From Armatimonadota bacterium (GTDB taxonomy: Bacteria > Armatimonadota > SYMT01): 64,000 nucleotides of DNA. The notes beneath the pieces were generated by a model. The model worked only from the letters and a program-made list of their open reading frames with translations, was not told the origin of the DNA and did not search any database. The stretch lies in assembly GCA_041690135.1 (NCBI GenBank), contig JAWLHY010000002.1, positions 1 to 64,000 on the forward strand, written 5' to 3'. Made by a program: the position numbers and the translations under genes. This document shows, piece by piece, positions 5,556-11,306 of the stretch. Numbering within the stretch: position 1 is the first letter of the stretch; the number at the start of each line of letters is the position of its first letter.

Positions 5556-5627
5556 GCCGGTGTAGCTCAATGGTAGAGCGCCTGTTTTGTAAACAGATGG
5601 TTGCGGGTTCGATTCCTGTCACCGGCT
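5556..5627 (+). tRNA. tRNA-Thr(TGT)
   Basis: GCCGGTG/CACCGGC acceptor stem, anticodon loop TT-TGT-AA, GGTTCGATTCC T-arm; CCA not encoded. Confidence 0.95.
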
Positions 5628-5675
5628 CTGCAGCACCGGCCTGAGTCCGGATACTGCGAATTGACAATTAAACAT

Positions 5676-5756
5676 GGGCAGGTTCCCGAGTGGCCAAAGG
5701 GAGCGGTCTGTAAAATCGCTGCGTAAGCTTCAGAAGTTCGAATCTTCTCCTGCCCA
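5676..5756 (+). tRNA. tRNA-Tyr(GTA)
   Basis: GGGCAGG/CCTGCCC acceptor stem, CT-GTA-AA loop, long variable arm, TTCGAAT T-loop; no CCA. Confidence 0.95.
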
Positions 5757-5813
5757 TCCCAAGAGGGATTATCTGATCTTTAAGGTTTTCACCTTTTATG
5801 AAAGATATCCCGC

Positions 5814-5842
5814 TTGACAGATGTGAAACGGCGAGCTAGACT
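5814..5842 (+). promoter_or_regulatory. Sigma70-type promoter for tRNA-Thr(GGT)-rpmG-tRNA-Trp
   Basis: TTGACA-N17-TAGACT, 12 nt before the tRNA. Confidence 0.7.
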
Positions 5843-5854
5843 CACGCTTCACGG

Positions 5855-5926
5855 GCCTCCCTAGCGCAGTGGTAGCGCACGTTCTTGGTAAGAACGGGGT
5901 CATGGGTTCGAGTCCCATGGGAGGCT
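5855..5926 (+). tRNA. tRNA-Thr(GGT)
   Basis: GCCTCCC/GGGAGGC acceptor stem, CGTTC-TT-GGT-AA-GAACG anticodon arm; no CCA. Confidence 0.95.
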
Positions 5927-5958
5927 TTGCCGAGAGGCATTCCCGCGTAGGTAAAACC

Positions 5959-6120
5959 ATGGCAAAAGACGATCGCATCATTATCGGTATGGCGTGCAGC
6001 GACTGCAAAGAGCGCAACTACCATACCAGCAAGAACAAGAAGAACGACACGCAGCGTCTGGAGTTGCGGAAGTTTTGTCCGCGCTGTCGCAAGCACACGC
6101 AGCACCGCGAGACGAAGTAA
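5959..6120 (+). CDS. rpmG: 50S ribosomal protein L33 (Zn-binding, two CxxC)
   Basis: [29 protein letters not shown]...[20 protein letters not shown]. Confidence 0.97.
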
Positions 6121-6179
6121 GGCCGCTCCGGCCCTGCCGGTGACCAGGAGACGGTGAGCCCACCAGAGCCCGCCGCCGA

Positions 6180-6252
6180 AGGGGTGTAGCTCAGTTGGTA
6201 GAGCAGCGGTCTCCAAAACCGCAGGCCGCAGGTTCGAGTCCTGTCGCCCCTG
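6180..6252 (+). tRNA. tRNA-Trp(CCA)
   Basis: AGGGGTG/CGCCCCT acceptor stem, GCGGT-CT-CCA-AA-ACCGC anticodon arm; no CCA end. Confidence 0.95.
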
Positions 6253-6257
6253 CTTGA

Positions 6258-6288
6258 AATCCCCGCACGCAAGTGCCGGGGATTTTTT
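6258..6288 (+). terminator. Intrinsic terminator after tRNA-Trp
   Basis: AATCCCCGCAC-GCAA-GTGCCGGGGATT followed by a T run. Confidence 0.8.
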
Positions 6289-6359
6289 GCTTTGATGGCC
6301 GCCGGTTTGGAACGGCTCCCGCGAACCAGCCGTCACCGCGACGTAGACGGCTTCATCGG

Positions 6360-7721
6360 TCACTTCACCGTGATCTGCTTCTCCGCGGTGATCTTGCCGG
6401 CGAGAGGACCGGAGTCGAAGACGGCGCGGAGCGTATAGAGACCGGGCTTTCCATTCGTGGGCACTCGCACGGAGGCCGAGCAGAAGCGCCCTCAAGCAAA
6501 GCCGCTGTGTGCCTCTCCTACCGCCTTACCGTCCGGGTCCAGGAGCGTGATCAGCGCGAAGTCTTCCGGCGAGTCGAATTCTCCCTGGCCCGCCCGGCGG
6601 ACGTTGGTCAGCTCGAGGCCCAGGTCGGAGCGGCCGGACAACTGGATCTTCAACTCCTCGCCGGGACCGATCTTTCCGGGAGCTTCGATCCCGAGCGTCA
6701 GGCCGCGGTAGAGGGAAAGCTCCGGCGTGGCATCCGGCGCGATCGCCAGGGGAAAGCTTCGCGCCTCTCTCCCTTCCAGGTAGCGGGAGAAACTGTAGCT
6801 CCACGCGCCGCCGGGCTTCTTATCCGGAGAGACGCGGAGCGTGAGGCTGGTCAGGGCATATCTTCCCGCGGGTAGCTCCAACTCCTGGGTCGGGCTCTCG
6901 GCGCGGATGATATCGTCGGCGAGGGAGAGGAGGGTGCCGTCCACCCCCACGACCCGCCCGGCCAGCTCCGGGGCAAATGCCAGCCGCCGCCGGACCACCC
7001 CTCGCTCGATCCGGCTGTACTGGGCGCTCCCACCGCGGTCGGCCGCCTGGAAGGAAAAGCGGTACAGCTCGCTGCCGATCCGGAGTACCGGCGCGCAGGG
7101 AAACTGCTCGGTCACCGGGTCGAGCGTGCCGCTGCCGTCCCGGTCGATCCAGATCAGGTCGCCTTTCTCCTCGCCATACTTCCCGTTCGCATTCCCGTCC
7201 ACGAGGAACGCCGGCCGCGGTTTGCCCTCCACGGTCACCTCGCCCCGGAGGAAGCCGCGCCAGGCCCAGAAGAGGACGTTCGGAGCACGGCAGGCCCAGA
7301 CGACCGCGGTCTTGCCGTTCAGGGTGGCCACGGCGGATAGATCATCTTCGCAGGCGGGCCAGCGGACCACTCCCTTCTGCAGGAGGATCCCCTCCCCGGA
7401 GGTGAGCCGCTGATCGCCGTTGCCATCCAGGTAGACCCGCAGCGTACCGTCCGGCAGGCGTACCTGAGCGACGCCCGCACCCTGGATGCTGCCGTAGAGG
7501 ATGGAAGCCCCTTCCGGAGCAGCCGCTTCCAGCTTTGCGGAGGGCCGGGCAATCAGATAGAGGGGTCGCGGCGCGACGAGCGTCTGGCCGCCCCAGCCCG
7601 GGTCTTCGACCGGTTGGAATGGGACCGGCACCGGATCGGCCGGAGGGGTACTGTCCGCCGGTGCTGCGCCTGCCGCGAGCAGGAGACCGGCCGTGGCTGC
7701 GAGCACGTGGGTGTTTCTCAT
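6360..7721 (-). CDS. Secreted protein, candidate selenoprotein (in-frame TGA at 6492-6494; 453 aa if read through, 409 aa otherwise)
   Basis: Signal peptide; DxDxDG-type Ca-binding loops (DGNGDQ, DGNANG, DRDGSG); after ...GEAHSGFA-TGA the frame continues GRFCSASVRVPTNGKPGLYTLRAVFDSGPLAGKITAEKQITVK-stop. Confidence 0.7.
6459..6491 (-). promoter_or_regulatory. SECIS-like hairpin immediately 3' of the in-frame UGA
   Basis: GGGCGCU...AGUGCCC 7-bp lower stem; upper GC-U-CG[GCCUC]CG-U-GC with a G-first loop about 16 nt from the UGA. Confidence 0.5.
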
Positions 7722-7733
7722 GGGGGTCTCCTC

Positions 7734-10700
7734 TCAATCGTCTTCTTCCGGGGACCGCAGGTTCAGAGCGCTTTCGAGCTTTTCCCGGCGGATGCGAGGG
7801 TCCAGGATGAACTCCGCCGTGCCGATCCCGTCGGGGTTGGCGCCGGACTGTTTCAGGGTGTCCAGGTACGCCTCCGCCTGCGTGGGGTCGGCGGCCGCGG
7901 TCGCCAGCAGGAGGTTCCGGCGAATCTCCGCCGCGGCCCAGCTCCGCTCGGGGGCTTTGATCGCCTCCATCCGGGGCCGGAGGATCCCGAGTAGGTTCCG
8001 GCCTGCTTCTGGATCCAGGTGCGCCATCAGTAGCGCCACCTTCGCGTGGCTGCGGTACTGTTCGAGCGGGTCGCCGTACTCCACGTGGAGCGCGGGCCGG
8101 CTGGCGAGGGACTTCGCCATCAGCCTGCGGGCTGCCGGCGCATCCAGTTCCTTTGCCACCCATGCGGCATGCGCCAGGTAGAGCGCTGGGGGATCGTAGG
8201 TGTCATCCTCTGTAGTAACCGCGGCCCAGGCGGTGAGCTCCTGTTCGGCGCGATCGAGGGTCGCCAGCGCCCGCTTCCGGTCGCGGATCCGCTCCGCCAT
8301 CCAGAGCAGCGCGCGGATCCGCTGCCGGCGGTCCTGCAGCTTCCCGATCAGCCGGTCGGCGCCGTCCGGGTCGTCAGCCGCCAGGCGAGCGCACATCTTC
8401 GAGATCGCCCGCTGCGATTGCCACTCGTCGCCGGCGGTGCTCAAGAGCTGCAGCGCTTTCTCCGGAGACCGGGTTACGTAGCGGACGGCGATGTTGGCCA
8501 CGTGTCGCTGGCGGCTTGCCTCGTCCGTAATGGGGGCGATCAGCGCCACCGCGGCGTCGAGGTCGATCTCGGCTAGGCGCTCCGCCACGGTGCCGCGGGT
8601 ATAGGCGTCGCCTTCCTGAACGCCCAGCCGGGCCGCCCGGGCCGCGCACTCCCGCAGCAGGATCTCCGCGCCCGGCATCTTTCGCCGTCGCATCCCCTCC
8701 GCGCATTCCGCCAGCAGGTAGAGTTGCTGCATCAATTCCGGTACCTGCCGGGCGGAAGCGACGGCGGCCGTAAGGATTGGGGGGGCCTGTTCGGGGGTGC
8801 TCTCGGCGGCGAGGCTCAGCAGGTTCCGGGTCCGCCAGAACGGGTGGTCCACCTGCCGGATGCAGGCGATCGCCTCCTCCACGCTGCGCTTCAGGGCGAC
8901 CCGGCCCAGGTCGTGGCTCAAGGAGTTCCTCTCCGGCTGCCCGGCCGCCATGGCGATCTCGGTCGCGCGGAGGATGTCCCGGGGAACCAGCAGGTCAATC
9001 ACTCGCTGGCGCTCCCGCCACCGCTCAGGTTGGGTCCCGGCCTCCGCCAGCGTGCGGTCGATCAGTTGCAGCGCCAGCCGCTCCCGAGCCGCCGTCAGTT
9101 CCACCGAGTCCGGCGCGGGAACCATCGGGCGCAGCACCAGCCGGACTTCCCGCGCTGGCGCGAGCGTATAGAGGAGGCCCAGGGGATGCCCCGCTTTCTC
9201 GGCGGCGACATAGCAGCCGCCGCTTTCCAGCCCTTCGAGCCGGAAGCGGCCCCGGGCATCGCTGGTCGTCTGGAGCGGGCGTTCGGCGTCGCCGGAGTTG
9301 AAGACCCGCGCGCCGGCGACGGGGCGGCCGCGGGCATCCACGACCGTCCCCACGACGATACCGAGCTGCCGGACCAGCCGGATCGATCCGAAGTCGTGCC
9401 GGCCACCATTCGTCGATTTCCACCGCTCCGACATCATGGTCCGGTGCCGGGGAGCCTGCACCTTCACGCTGTATTCGGCCTCGGGTGGGAGCGCTTCGGA
9501 GCGGAACCGGCCTTCCGCATCGGTCTTGAGGGTGGCGGGATAGTCCCCCCAGCGGCCGTACATCGCGGATACCCGGACGTTCGCACCGCGGACCGGTTTA
9601 CCGGCGTCGTCGACGACTCGTCCCTCCAGATAGGTGGCAATCTCCGGTTTCACCACCAGCGTTACCGGGCCGGAAAGGGTCTTCAGGTCTACCGGCACCG
9701 GGAGTGAATACCCGGACCCGGTCCGCGCGGAGAGCCGCAGCGAGGCATCCGGCGCCAGGCCCAGGAGCACTCCCTCGCCATGGGCATTCGTGGCCAGGGG
9801 CATGTCATCCCAGGGCGTGACTGAGGCCTCGTTCCGTACGAGCGCTCCCTTGAGCGGCTTTCCAGCCGCATCGACGACCCGCACGGTGACGGTGCGGCCC
9901 TTGCGGAGGCGGATCTCCTCCAGGTCGAGGCTCTCTCCCGGCACTCCTGTCCCGGAGCGCTGCAAACGCTCTTCGGACAGGAAGTAATTCGCCGGCTGGA
10001 GGGTGGAACGGAAGAGGGTGACCGCCACTCTTCCGGGCCGGGCATAGAAGCTGTATTTGCCCTCCGCGTCGGTGCTCTGTCCTGCGCCTGCCTCGGTGGA
10101 GACCCAGAGGTCCGGGATTCCCTTTCCGGTCTCCTCGTCCACGATCCGGCCGGTCACCCGAACGCCGCGGACCGCCTCCACCGGCAGCACCAGTCCCTCG
10201 AGCGTTTTGCCTTCGGGGACCATTACCGCCATGTGCGCGCTCGGCTGCCACTCGCTGGTGCCGGGAACGAACACGGAGAGGGTGAGCGCACCCGGCCGCA
10301 CGTGATCGATCTCGAAGATTCCGCCGGCCTTTACTCTGCCGGTGGCCCTCGCGTATTCCTGCTGCGCGACTACGTGCACTCCCTCCACCGGCATGGCGGG
10401 GTCGCTCAACCGGAGCCGCCCCCGGATCCGGGTCCGGCGGTGGAGGATGATCGGTTGGGGCGCGGGCGCGCGGGCGTCGAGGTAAGTGGAGCCACGGTTA
10501 TACCCCGTTCGCCGCACCTGGAGCGAGAGGTTTCCTTTCACCGGTGCCTGGGTCAGCAGGTACTCGCCTTTCGCATCGCTCCGGACGACCCAGAGCTTTC
10601 CCAAGGGAGCAGGGAGTACCGTGCCCAGCCAGTACAACGGTCCCGCGGTCTCGGACTGAAGGGTCACTCGCTCTGGGGTGATGATGGCGCCGGCAACCGG

Positions 10701-11159
10701 CTTGCCGGCGCTGTCCTTCACCGCTCCCCGCACCTTTCGGACCCGGTGGAGGTCGATCTCCACTGGCTCGTCACTCTCCGGGGGCACCGAGCCCAGGCCG
10801 ATGGCGGCGCCCTGGCGCCAGGCCAGTACGATCAGTAGTCCCTTCCGCGGACGTGGGGTGGTGCTGTTGAGGGTGAATCGGCCCGCCTTGTCCGTCACCG
10901 CCTGGCCGCAGAGGGTGTAGCGCGACTCGTCCAGGTTTTTGCCGCGAGCGTTCAAGATGAGGTAGACGGGACAGCCGGCGGCGGGCTTTCCGCCGGGAAC
11001 TCTCACGATGCCGGCGGCGCGGGCGGCGGGGCGTGCCGGCTCCGCCCCCTCCGTGGCGGCACGCGCCTCCTCCGCCCGGATCGGCGCGGTGATGGTCGCC
11101 GCCGGCAACACCGCCAGCAGCACCGCCGCGGTCCGGGTGAGGCAAGAGAGAGTAGGCAT
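7734..11159 (-). CDS. Large secreted protein with tandem carboxypeptidase-regulatory-like (prealbumin-fold) repeats and a C-terminal helical-repeat region
   Basis: Signal peptide; repeated GRVVDDAGKPVRGA...TDAEGRF motifs; Ala/Leu/Arg-rich helical C-terminus; SD GGAG before MPTLSC. Confidence 0.8.
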   Translation of the reverse strand: MPTLSCLTRTAAVLLAVLPAATITAPIRAEEARAATEGAEPARPAARAAGIVRVPGGKPAAGCPVYLILNARGKNLDESRYTLCGQAVTDKAGRFTLNSTTPRPRKGLLIVLAWRQGAAIGLGSVPPESDEPVEIDLHRVRKVRGAVKDSAGKPVAGAIITPERVTLQSETAGPLYWLGTVLPAPLGKLWVVRSDAKGEYLLTQAPVKGNLSLQVRRTGYNRGSTYLDARAPAPQPIILHRRTRIRGRLRLSDPAMPVEGVHVVAQQEYARATGRVKAGGIFEIDHVRPGALTLSVFVPGTSEWQPSAHMAVMVPEGKTLEGLVLPVEAVRGVRVTGRIVDEETGKGIPDLWVSTEAGAGQSTDAEGKYSFYARPGRVAVTLFRSTLQPANYFLSEERLQRSGTGVPGESLDLEEIRLRKGRTVTVRVVDAAGKPLKGALVRNEASVTPWDDMPLATNAHGEGVLLGLAPDASLRLSARTGSGYSLPVPVDLKTLSGPVTLVVKPEIATYLEGRVVDDAGKPVRGANVRVSAMYGRWGDYPATLKTDAEGRFRSEALPPEAEYSVKVQAPRHRTMMSERWKSTNGGRHDFGSIRLVRQLGIVVGTVVDARGRPVAGARVFNSGDAERPLQTTSDARGRFRLEGLESGGCYVAAEKAGHPLGLLYTLAPAREVRLVLRPMVPAPDSVELTAARERLALQLIDRTLAEAGTQPERWRERQRVIDLLVPRDILRATEIAMAAGQPERNSLSHDLGRVALKRSVEEAIACIRQVDHPFWRTRNLLSLAAESTPEQAPPILTAAVASARQVPELMQQLYLLAECAEGMRRRKMPGAEILLRECAARAARLGVQEGDAYTRGTVAERLAEIDLDAAVALIAPITDEASRQRHVANIAVRYVTRSPEKALQLLSTAGDEWQSQRAISKMCARLAADDPDGADRLIGKLQDRRQRIRALLWMAERIRDRKRALATLDRAEQELTAWAAVTTEDDTYDPPALYLAHAAWVAKELDAPAARRLMAKSLASRPALHVEYGDPLEQYRSHAKVALLMAHLDPEAGRNLLGILRPRMEAIKAPERSWAAAEIRRNLLLATAAADPTQAEAYLDTLKQSGANPDGIGTAEFILDPRIRREKLESALNLRSPEEDD

Positions 11160-11196
11160 GAGGGTATCTCCTCGGGAAGCGGTTGTTTCCGTAAAG

Positions 11197-11221
11197 GACG
11201 AAAGACAGTCCCAGCGGTTAC
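11197..11221 (-). promoter_or_regulatory. ECF-sigma-type promoter for the 11159/7721 operon
   Basis: GTAAC-N16-CGTC on the minus strand, about 40 nt before the start. Confidence 0.4.
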
Positions 11222-11265
11222 GCTTGCGTTGCGCCGAAATCGAGAGCGGCCAGAAACGCAACGAG

Positions 11266-11306
11266 GCGAGCGTGGAAAGTCGCGCTGCACGACTCTCCAC
11301 GCTCGC
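11266..11306 (-). terminator. Hairpin downstream of yebC
   Basis: GCGAGCGTGGAAAGTCG / CGACTCTCCACGCTCGC inverted repeat. Confidence 0.5.

Follow-up and report, generated by a model that had tools for sequence, protein, structure and literature searches.

A UGA codon very probably read as selenocysteine in a predicted exported protein of Armatimonadota

In the genome of an Armatimonadota bacterium (assembly GCA_041690135.1), a minus-strand gene near the start of contig JAWLHY010000002.1 raises the question of whether its TGA ends the protein or encodes selenocysteine (Sec). The gene lies in a stretch of 64,000 nucleotides (nt), positions 1 to 64,000 of that contig, to which we refer as the window. 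Its open reading frame (ORF; 7721..6492, with the start ATG at 7721) encodes 409 amino acids (aa) with the C-terminus ...HSGFA followed by TGA at 6492-6494, and existing gene calls end at codon 409. Past this TGA, the same frame runs on for 43 codons (6491..6363) as GRFCSASVRVPTNGKPGLYTLRAVFDSGPLAGKITAEKQITVK, in which Sec as U410 and a cysteine as C414 form a U-x-x-x-C arrangement. An initial annotation, made from the sequence alone, had described this layout down to position 6360 and proposed that the UGA encodes Sec. The layout is confirmed in the window sequence, and the proposal is supported by the TGA/Cys pattern of the column in homologs, by selection downstream of it, by covariation in a hairpin that resembles a Sec insertion sequence (SECIS), and by the sel genes. 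All of the refutations named by the initial annotation were checked, and none of them overturned the proposal. On this comparative evidence, the TGA is very probably a Sec codon.

The TGA column in relatives and the codons beyond it

Four homologs at 37-67% identity, found by a word-indexed protein search, all end at the same GFA/GFS column. Six-frame searches reading through stops gave relatives at 25-41% identity whose alignments contain exactly one TGA and extend to about position 452. When 401 genomes of the phylum were searched with a profile, 132 gave matches; among the matches listed, nearly all of those reaching the C-terminal region contain exactly one TGA, and those limited to the N-terminal part contain none. 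Over all the loci that we fetched, TGA occupies the column at 67 distinct sites spread over 55 loci, a census whose counts overstate independence because the sequences are mutually related. Every one of these 67 stop-bearing sites is TGA, never TAA or TAG. Five sites have another codon at the column, namely TGC or TGT at three, AGT (Ser) at one and CAG (Gln) at one, and two domains have a gap. One locus (L014, G019:C26) holds two tandem family genes on the same strand, each with its own TGA.

The surroundings of the TGA are also conserved, and the motif around Sec reads [FY]-G-U-G-x-x-C. The residue before the TGA is G at 59, T at 5 and A at 3 of the 67 sites, and Gly follows it directly at 66. 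The first Cys after the TGA is at +4 at 51 sites, at +5 at 6 and at +6 at 1, while 9 sites have no Cys within +7. The pairing of Sec with a Cys four residues later, which the initial annotation had put forward, is therefore present here (C414) and at most sites but is not universal.

The same column is visible in protein databases. Of 1.84 billion representatives, a profile of the C-terminal 180 residues matched 2787 at E<=1e-3, of which 578 reached E<=1e-10. Among the best 150 of the 2787, 90 proteins end exactly one residue before the Sec column, indicating that gene callers stopped at the TGA. A further 59 proteins (73 domains) run through the column, with Cys in 32 domains and a gap in 18; the other residues are G (7), R (5), W (2), S (2), A (2) and one each of H, Y, T, E and D. 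As had been predicted, homologs thus show TGA or Cys at this column: 67 TGA sites and 3 Cys loci in the fetched set, and Cys in 32 of the 73 run-through domains. The source names of the database relatives are "hypothetical protein" (one "partial"), with the exception of one fusion protein called "peroxiredoxin", and the organisms, named in three entries, belong to Armatimonadota or to the related Abditibacteriaceae. Run-through relatives with Arg, Gly or Trp at the column include P0014, P0052, P0026 and P0020.

The codons after the TGA are conserved as protein. Their ratio of non-synonymous to synonymous substitution rates (dN/dS; Nei-Gojobori, 23 ungapped pairs) has a median of 0.095 and a range of 0-0.31, which is no higher than that of the 42 codons before the TGA, where the median is 0.15 for the pairs in which it was computable. 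Between the loci L015 and L016, the segment past the TGA differs by seven synonymous changes and no non-synonymous change. The conservation beyond the TGA that was foreseen for homologs is thus present, and these ratios clearly point to a downstream frame that is translated and under purifying selection.

The hairpin after the UGA and the selenocysteine machinery

In SECIS elements that bind SelB, the distance between the UGA and a G-U loop is fixed. In every TGA form of the family, we found a hairpin with its apical loop about 24-28 nt from the U of the UGA. A perfect stem of at least 6 base pairs (bp) is present in 61 of the 67 TGA forms and in none of the 5 non-TGA forms. The perfect stem averages 6.73 bp across 44 sites, compared with 4.20 bp in synonymous recodings in which protein sequence and codon usage of the gene are preserved; the difference reaches P<=0.05 at 17 of these sites, and 22 distinct stem cores are represented. 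The apical loops at the 44 sites are GUG (10), CGUGC (9), GGU (6), CGUGU (5), CGUGA (4), GUU (4) and others.

Covariation was analysed on alignment A5, a gap-free, codon-anchored set of 12 sequences that share the register of the 5-nt loop. Paired cells make up 82.1% of this alignment as opposed to 69.1% in shuffles, and in five of the seven pairs, both partners vary. The covariation score, for a test structure that was derived from the same related sequences, is 0.385 against 0.126 ± 0.038 in shuffles, none of 500 of which reaches it, and 0.019-0.132 for slid partners. Pairs were counted on A5 and not on the 31-sequence codon alignment A3, which mixes 3-nt and 5-nt loops and so does not keep the structure in register. 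The two tandem genes of L014 have different, compensated stems, GGGCUC/GAGCCC in one and GCUACUC/GAGUAGC in the other. A covariance-model search regained the sites together with three spurious low-score matches; its alignment leans to the model, and no counts were taken from it. The SECIS search and covariation analysis that the initial annotation had suggested therefore yielded a hairpin that is kept across the family with compensatory changes.

In the window, this hairpin consists of GGCCUC, a CGUGC loop at nt 24-28 and GAG-U-GCC, with one bulged U. The earlier description was of a stem-loop formed by the 33 nt right after the UGA, with a G-first apical loop about 16 nt downstream. Such a stem-loop is present in the RNAfold prediction (nt 4-36) but is not significant on its own, and the placement of the loop has to be revised, as the conserved hairpin is the inner one. 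The significance of the SECIS comes from the comparison across homologs and not from the single window sequence.

The genome itself encodes the machinery for Sec insertion, and all four genes that the initial annotation had named (selA, selB, selC and selD) are in it. selA scores 481 bits, selB is represented by a SelB wing domain in a 644-aa frame, tRNA-SeC is the only tRNA with a tca anticodon found, and selD itself contains one in-frame TGA; selA, selD and tRNA-SeC are clustered at C1:1149693-1152363. The genome further encodes a Sec-type FdhA whose frame holds one TGA (993.8 bits; C3:653175-656255) and about ten AhpC/TSA-like frames each interrupted by a single TGA, such as C1:432887-433258. 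The sel genes, FdhA and the AhpC/TSA-like frames together indicate that Sec decoding is in active use in this organism, and suggest that its 9.1-Mb genome holds a sizeable selenoproteome. A genome-wide use of TGA as a sense codon was considered and rejected: the neighbouring gene and the true end of the selenoprotein gene use TGA as a stop, and the only tca tRNA is tRNA-SeC.

Across the phylum, SelA is found at E<=1e-30 in 218 of the 401 genomes. We cross-tabulated SelA with the family by eye among the matches listed, with 53 rows of the family search and 77 SelA rows lying outside the table. On this basis, 48 of the 50 genomes with a TGA form have SelA, and the other two (G190 and G082) have a SelB wing domain, so that all 50 have SelA or SelB. 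The three Cys-form genomes (G069, G371 and G184) have neither, and the SelA-positive genomes do not include the Gln-form genome G302.

Taken together, these data are best explained, with a confidence almost as high as that for the codon itself, by SECIS/SelB-dependent recoding that would give a 453-residue Sec protein. SelB with Sec-tRNA(Sec) would be recruited by the SECIS hairpin, which starts about 15 nt after the UGA and has its G-U apical loop at about nt 24-26, and the ribosome would make the 453-residue product rather than the 409-residue one. The recoding mechanism is the ordinary bacterial one. Selenoproteins of the Escherichia coli fdhF type also have an in-frame UGA and, shortly after it within the coding sequence, a hairpin whose G-U apical loop keeps a constant distance. 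Cys homologs and dependence on the sel genes are likewise shared with the bacterial selenoproteins made by SelA, SelB, SelC and SelD.

Several observations weigh against this recoding. The longer stem-loop of the window does not fold beyond chance (minimum free energy (MFE) -20.6 kcal/mol, z -0.76, with 42 of 200 shuffles folding at least as well). The window's own conserved hairpin is weak, a 3+3 bp stem with its bulged U that is one of the six exceptions to the perfect stem, and it is no better than its own synonymous recodings (P 0.90). Family-wide, the total MFE compared with synonymous recodings gives a modest signal (mean z -0.86, P<=0.05 at 10 of 44 sites), and a search against Rfam gave no SECIS family match, with only tRNA above threshold. 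No RNA sequencing run containing the stretch was found, and DNA runs share at most 0.11. The relatedness of the sequences in the census, the origin of the A5 test structure and the by-eye nature of the SelA table, as given above, fall on the same side, as do the database relatives with Gly, Arg, Trp or other residues at the column. Homologs with Trp, Arg or Gly at this position had been named by the initial annotation as what would speak for a nonsense mutation or an error. Such relatives do exist, but they are a minority beside TGA and Cys, and R, G, W, C and S can each be reached from TGA by a single base change; therefore, we give them little weight as a refutation. They may be real substitutions or gene calls under an alternative genetic code.

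Among the alternatives, the one that survives best accepts Sec and disputes its role, and is weighed with the fold below. The next dispenses with selenium: the hairpin would stimulate near-cognate read-through of the UGA as Trp, Cys or Arg. Purifying selection downstream and a hairpin after the UGA would fit this equally, and some relatives do have Arg, Gly or Trp at the column. However, the TGA forms coincide with SelA or SelB in 50 of 50 genomes among the matches listed while the Cys forms have neither in 3 of 3, Cys far outnumbers every other sense residue at the column (32 of 73), which is the classic Sec/Cys pattern, and the loop keeps its G-U at a fixed distance from the UGA. We consider stimulated read-through improbable. 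A genuine stop, which would leave a 409-residue product and 43 untranslated codons, is less probable still. All public gene calls end there and TGA is also the final stop of this gene, but the low downstream dN/dS (median 0.095), the confidently predicted beta-sandwich that would be split in two, the Cys-form homologs that read straight through the column, and the absence of TAA and TAG from all 67 stop-bearing sites argue strongly against it. A nonsense mutation, sequencing error or pseudogene in one genome, for which the bare in-frame stop is all that speaks, is refuted by the same TGA at 67 sites in 55 loci of many genomes, which also explains the 90 of the best 150 representatives that end before the column.

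Fold and possible role of the Sec-containing domain

With recoding to Sec as the preferred reading, the extension completes a domain. We modeled the full 453 residues with AlphaFold2 (AF2), which gave an all-beta model with a predicted local distance difference test score (pLDDT) of 91.4 and a predicted TM-score (pTM) of 0.81; the C-terminal 179 residues alone gave 87.5 and 0.83. The product would be a chain of beta-sandwich domains, the last of which, MG2-like, is complete in the AF2 model only with the post-UGA extension. In this model, the strand of residues 400-409 leads into a turn that holds Sec410, closely followed by Cys414, and two short strands come next. The best Foldseek match for the C-terminal part is the MG2 domain of human alpha-2-macroglobulin (2p9r; E 2e-4, target-normalised TM-score 0.71), while the whole protein gives low-TM multi-domain matches with query-normalised TM-scores of 0.10-0.19. 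VIA-align, whose whole-protein run tested residues 339-453, matched this segment to Salmonella alpha-2-macroglobulin (4u48; Z 10.2, root-mean-square deviation (rmsd) 2.5 over 97 residues) and to human 2p9r (Z 10.0, rmsd 2.2 over 95 residues), with ties to Spo0M (5cl2, Z 10.3), the IgSF domain of RgpB (4ief, Z 10.1) and MG2 of C3/C5 (Z 9.6-9.8). Metal-binding sandwiches are also among the fold neighbours, namely CopC (5icu, Z 8.6) and a CARDB domain with di-metal ions.

The Pfam MG2 match (PF01835) of the protein spans the TGA at 19.7 bits, below the cut-off of 32.8. Among 31 family members, MG2 is matched at E<=1 in 13, with a best E of 1.5e-5, and none reaches the cut-off. The proposal that the TGA cuts an MG2-like or immunoglobulin (Ig)-like sandwich in half is upheld by this match as well as by AF2 and the fold searches, which agree. 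The domain thus has the same fold as MG2 of alpha-2-macroglobulin and complement C3/C5, and other Ig-like domains score equally. In contrast to alpha-2-macroglobulin, the selenoprotein is about 450 aa long and not about 1500, and unlike thioester proteins, its 453-residue sequence is without CGEQ and its all-beta model is without a helical thioester-containing domain (TED).

Clues to a function come from relatives. Cys-form proteins with an N-terminal family domain and about 150 spare residues have a C-terminal AhpC-TSA/Redoxin domain above the Pfam cut-off in 8 of 8 cases, the eight fusion proteins (P0023, P0030, P0087, P0101, P0108, P0119, P0051 and P0013) having been chosen for their spare C-terminal length. 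The three fusions whose sequences were read (P0023, P0087 and P0013) have an F-F-C-x-C-G-x-C (CxxC) site, and the protein called "peroxiredoxin" by its source is one of the eight. Two other proteins scanned alongside have different domains; one of them, the Cys-form P0085, consists of two CarboxypepD_reg domains, the family domain and CBM9, a fusion that echoes the CarboxypepD_reg gene adjoining the selenoprotein gene in the window.

A second association is with the sel operon. In 11 loci chosen for having a family member and selA on the same contig, one to three family genes with one TGA each are followed on the same strand by selA, selD and selB in 11 of 11. Short paralogs in this position were seen at L063-L073, L089 and L100. 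In a systematic selA sample that took every fourth listed row, a family member lies within 5 kb upstream in 6 of 34 loci, and the selA loci of eight further genomes with the long form, including this genome, have no family member within 5 kb upstream. These numbers indicate that the sel-operon link is limited to certain clades, yet it spans six taxonomic families. The short paralogs are of two subtypes, one membrane-anchored (~215-270 aa) and one signal-peptide or lipoprotein-like (~280-320 aa). Just upstream of the sel-operon members, 7 of 10 loci have a gene for a Fer4_5 protein of ~265-320 aa, nearest to NapH/MauN in NCBIfam (E 1e-16 to 1e-19, 59-70 bits, below the cut-off of 213). In several Armatimonadota lineages, the order is NapH-like polyferredoxin, membrane-anchored Sec protein, lipoprotein-type Sec protein and selA-selD-selB.

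TlpA/ResA-type Redoxin domains and membrane polyferredoxins of the NapH/NosH/CcoG type belong to extracytoplasmic thiol:disulfide reductase systems. The family resembles them in that its Cys forms are fused to a CxxC Redoxin and its sel-operon paralogs lie beside NapH/MauN-like genes; it differs in that the Sec-bearing domain is not a thioredoxin fold and the NapH-like matches are below cut-offs. The Redoxin fusion, the sel-operon synteny and the polyferredoxin neighbour point to electron transfer to an extracytoplasmic Sec/Cys hairpin. We therefore lean towards the family domain being an extracytoplasmic redox hairpin, as judged from these gene contexts. Sec410 and Cys414 would then, somewhat more probably than otherwise, act on the outer face of the cell as a redox-active selenol/thiol pair, with a selenenylsulfide formed in the cycle. 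In relatives, re-reduction could be provided by the fused CxxC thioredoxin-fold domain of the Cys forms or by the NapH-like polyferredoxin adjoining the sel-operon forms.

Against a redox role stand the 9 of 67 TGA sites with no Cys within +7, and three features of this organism: its genome gave no Fer4_5 match, no Redoxin gene was found in the window, and its single family copy is on another contig than the sel genes. As a result, the redox partners are inferred from relatives only. The alternative is that Sec is inserted but does no redox chemistry, and instead binds a metal or metalloid (e.g., Cu, Hg or Se itself) or stabilises an extracellular hairpin as a static structural cross-link. The sites without a nearby Cys would suit such a role, as would the metal binders CopC (5icu) and CARDB among the fold neighbours, and the sel-operon link would fit selenium capture as well. 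On the other hand, the Cys forms are fused to a CxxC Redoxin in 8 of 8 cases, NapH-like electron-transfer genes adjoin in 7 of 10 loci, and many unrelated Ig-like domains score as well as the metal binders in the fold searches. We regard a non-redox Sec as possible but doubtful, and keep the redox hairpin as the preferred role. A broader proposal is that the family is a phylum-wide extracytoplasmic Sec redox module whose sel-operon forms make up a dedicated system on the outer face that reduces and captures environmental selenium (or another chalcogen) and feeds it to SelD; this is speculative and rather unlikely. If true, the selenium-capture reading would describe a selenium-acquisition pathway that itself depends on Sec. 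In any case, short paralogs directly upstream of selA-selD-selB give a starting point for testing how extracellular selenium is acquired or handled by bacteria.

Status of the family and surroundings of the gene

The initial annotation did not recognise a described selenoprotein family here, and database and literature searches bear this out, the literature within the parts of the sources covered. The selenoprotein matches no NCBIfam family at E<=1 and seven further members have no match near a cut-off; for the same protein and seven relatives, no Pfam cut-off is reached. DUF1573 (PF07610) is matched by none of 31 members at E<=1, and UGSC-containing (NF041046) by none of the 8 family proteins scanned. 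In the part of a 2026 review that was available (PMC13188914), none of the 119 families of its selenoprotein inventory matches. The nearest entries of that inventory by motif are UGSC-containing (NF041046), DUF1573 (PF07610, UGC) and UGC-containing TlpA, none of which matches by hidden Markov model (HMM) (PMC13188914, available part). The accessible portion of the deep-Sep study describes nine new families, none like the Armatimonadota MG2-like one (PMC12013277). The family was likewise not found described in the accessible parts of the literature on selenoproteins, SECIS elements and Armatimonadota, including PMC13326102 and PMC1976440, although BSepDB and the deep-Sep supplementary tables might list it. 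Centred on Armatimonadota, this large and apparently undescribed family consists of exported selenoproteins of MG2-like fold.

According to the accessible part of the same review (PMC13188914), a thioredoxin-like fold is found in most of the selenoproteins characterised. The present family differs from known bacterial selenoproteins in having an Ig/MG2-like sandwich instead, and U-G-x-x-C rather than UxxC or CxxU. With the DUF1573 selenoprotein and the UGSC-containing protein, both also predicted selenoproteins, it has a motif of the Sec-Gly-...-Cys type in common, but there is no HMM match and the Sec-Cys spacing is different. For annotation, this means that dozens of clusters in the databases stand as hypothetical proteins cut short, without the last third of the domain. 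Homology-plus-Cys pipelines and curated HMM libraries, as the family shows, still fail to find large selenoprotein families. The selenoproteome would gain an exported family with a non-thioredoxin, Ig-like fold, in a phylum with SelA in 218 of 401 genomes.

The features of the locus are collected in Table 1.

Table 1 Features of the selenoprotein locus in the window
Feature	Position	Strand	Basis or remark
Selenoprotein gene, full coding sequence	6363..7721	minus	453 codons, Sec = codon 410
UGA very probably read as selenocysteine (U410)	6492..6494	minus	column comparison in homologs
Cys414 codon TGC	6480..6482	minus	usual partner, four residues past Sec; sequence read directly
Stop codon of the extended frame, also TGA	6360..6362	minus	sequence read
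C-terminal MG2-like/Ig-like beta-sandwich, residues 339-453, contains Sec410	6363..6707	minus	AF2, fold searches
Family-conserved SECIS-like hairpin	6460..6477	minus	nt 18-35 counted from the U of the UGA
Longer stem-loop, nt 4-36 after the U	6459..6491	minus	RNAfold, window sequence alone
Signal-peptide-like N-terminus	7656..7721	minus	basic start, hydrophobic run, A-P-A
Upstream gene, 1188-aa exported protein	7734..11300	minus	12 nt from the selenoprotein gene
tRNA-Trp	6180-6253	plus	
GC-rich inverted repeat (imperfect) and T6	6261-6282; 6284-6289	plus	by eye

The N-terminus of the selenoprotein has the features of a signal peptide, and we infer from them that the protein would be exported. 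In the full-length AF2 model, residues 6-15 of this N-terminus form a helix with low pLDDT. A search of the genome with the profile of the C-terminal part found this single family copy and no paralog.

The 1188-aa protein encoded upstream has CarboxypepD_reg domains (Pfam) and a helical C-terminal region. Parts of its gene adjoin family genes in 12 fetched loci (tblastn), and it is a likely operon partner of the selenoprotein gene.

On the other side, the inverted repeat and T6 lie 77 nt from the end of the extended ORF. The initial annotation had placed the terminator hairpin of tRNA-Trp about 70 nt away; the structure is there by eye, while a consensus terminator scan gave 0 sites at 6261-6289. 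The repeat with its T6 (6261..6289) probably terminates tRNA-Trp transcription and may be bidirectional. Further along the plus strand, positions 5556-6253 of the window hold a tRNA cluster, Thr-Tyr-Thr ... Trp, with a small ORF (5869-6120) between the last two tRNAs, whose product presumably resembles ribosomal protein L33, with a zinc-ribbon CxxC...CxxC pattern.

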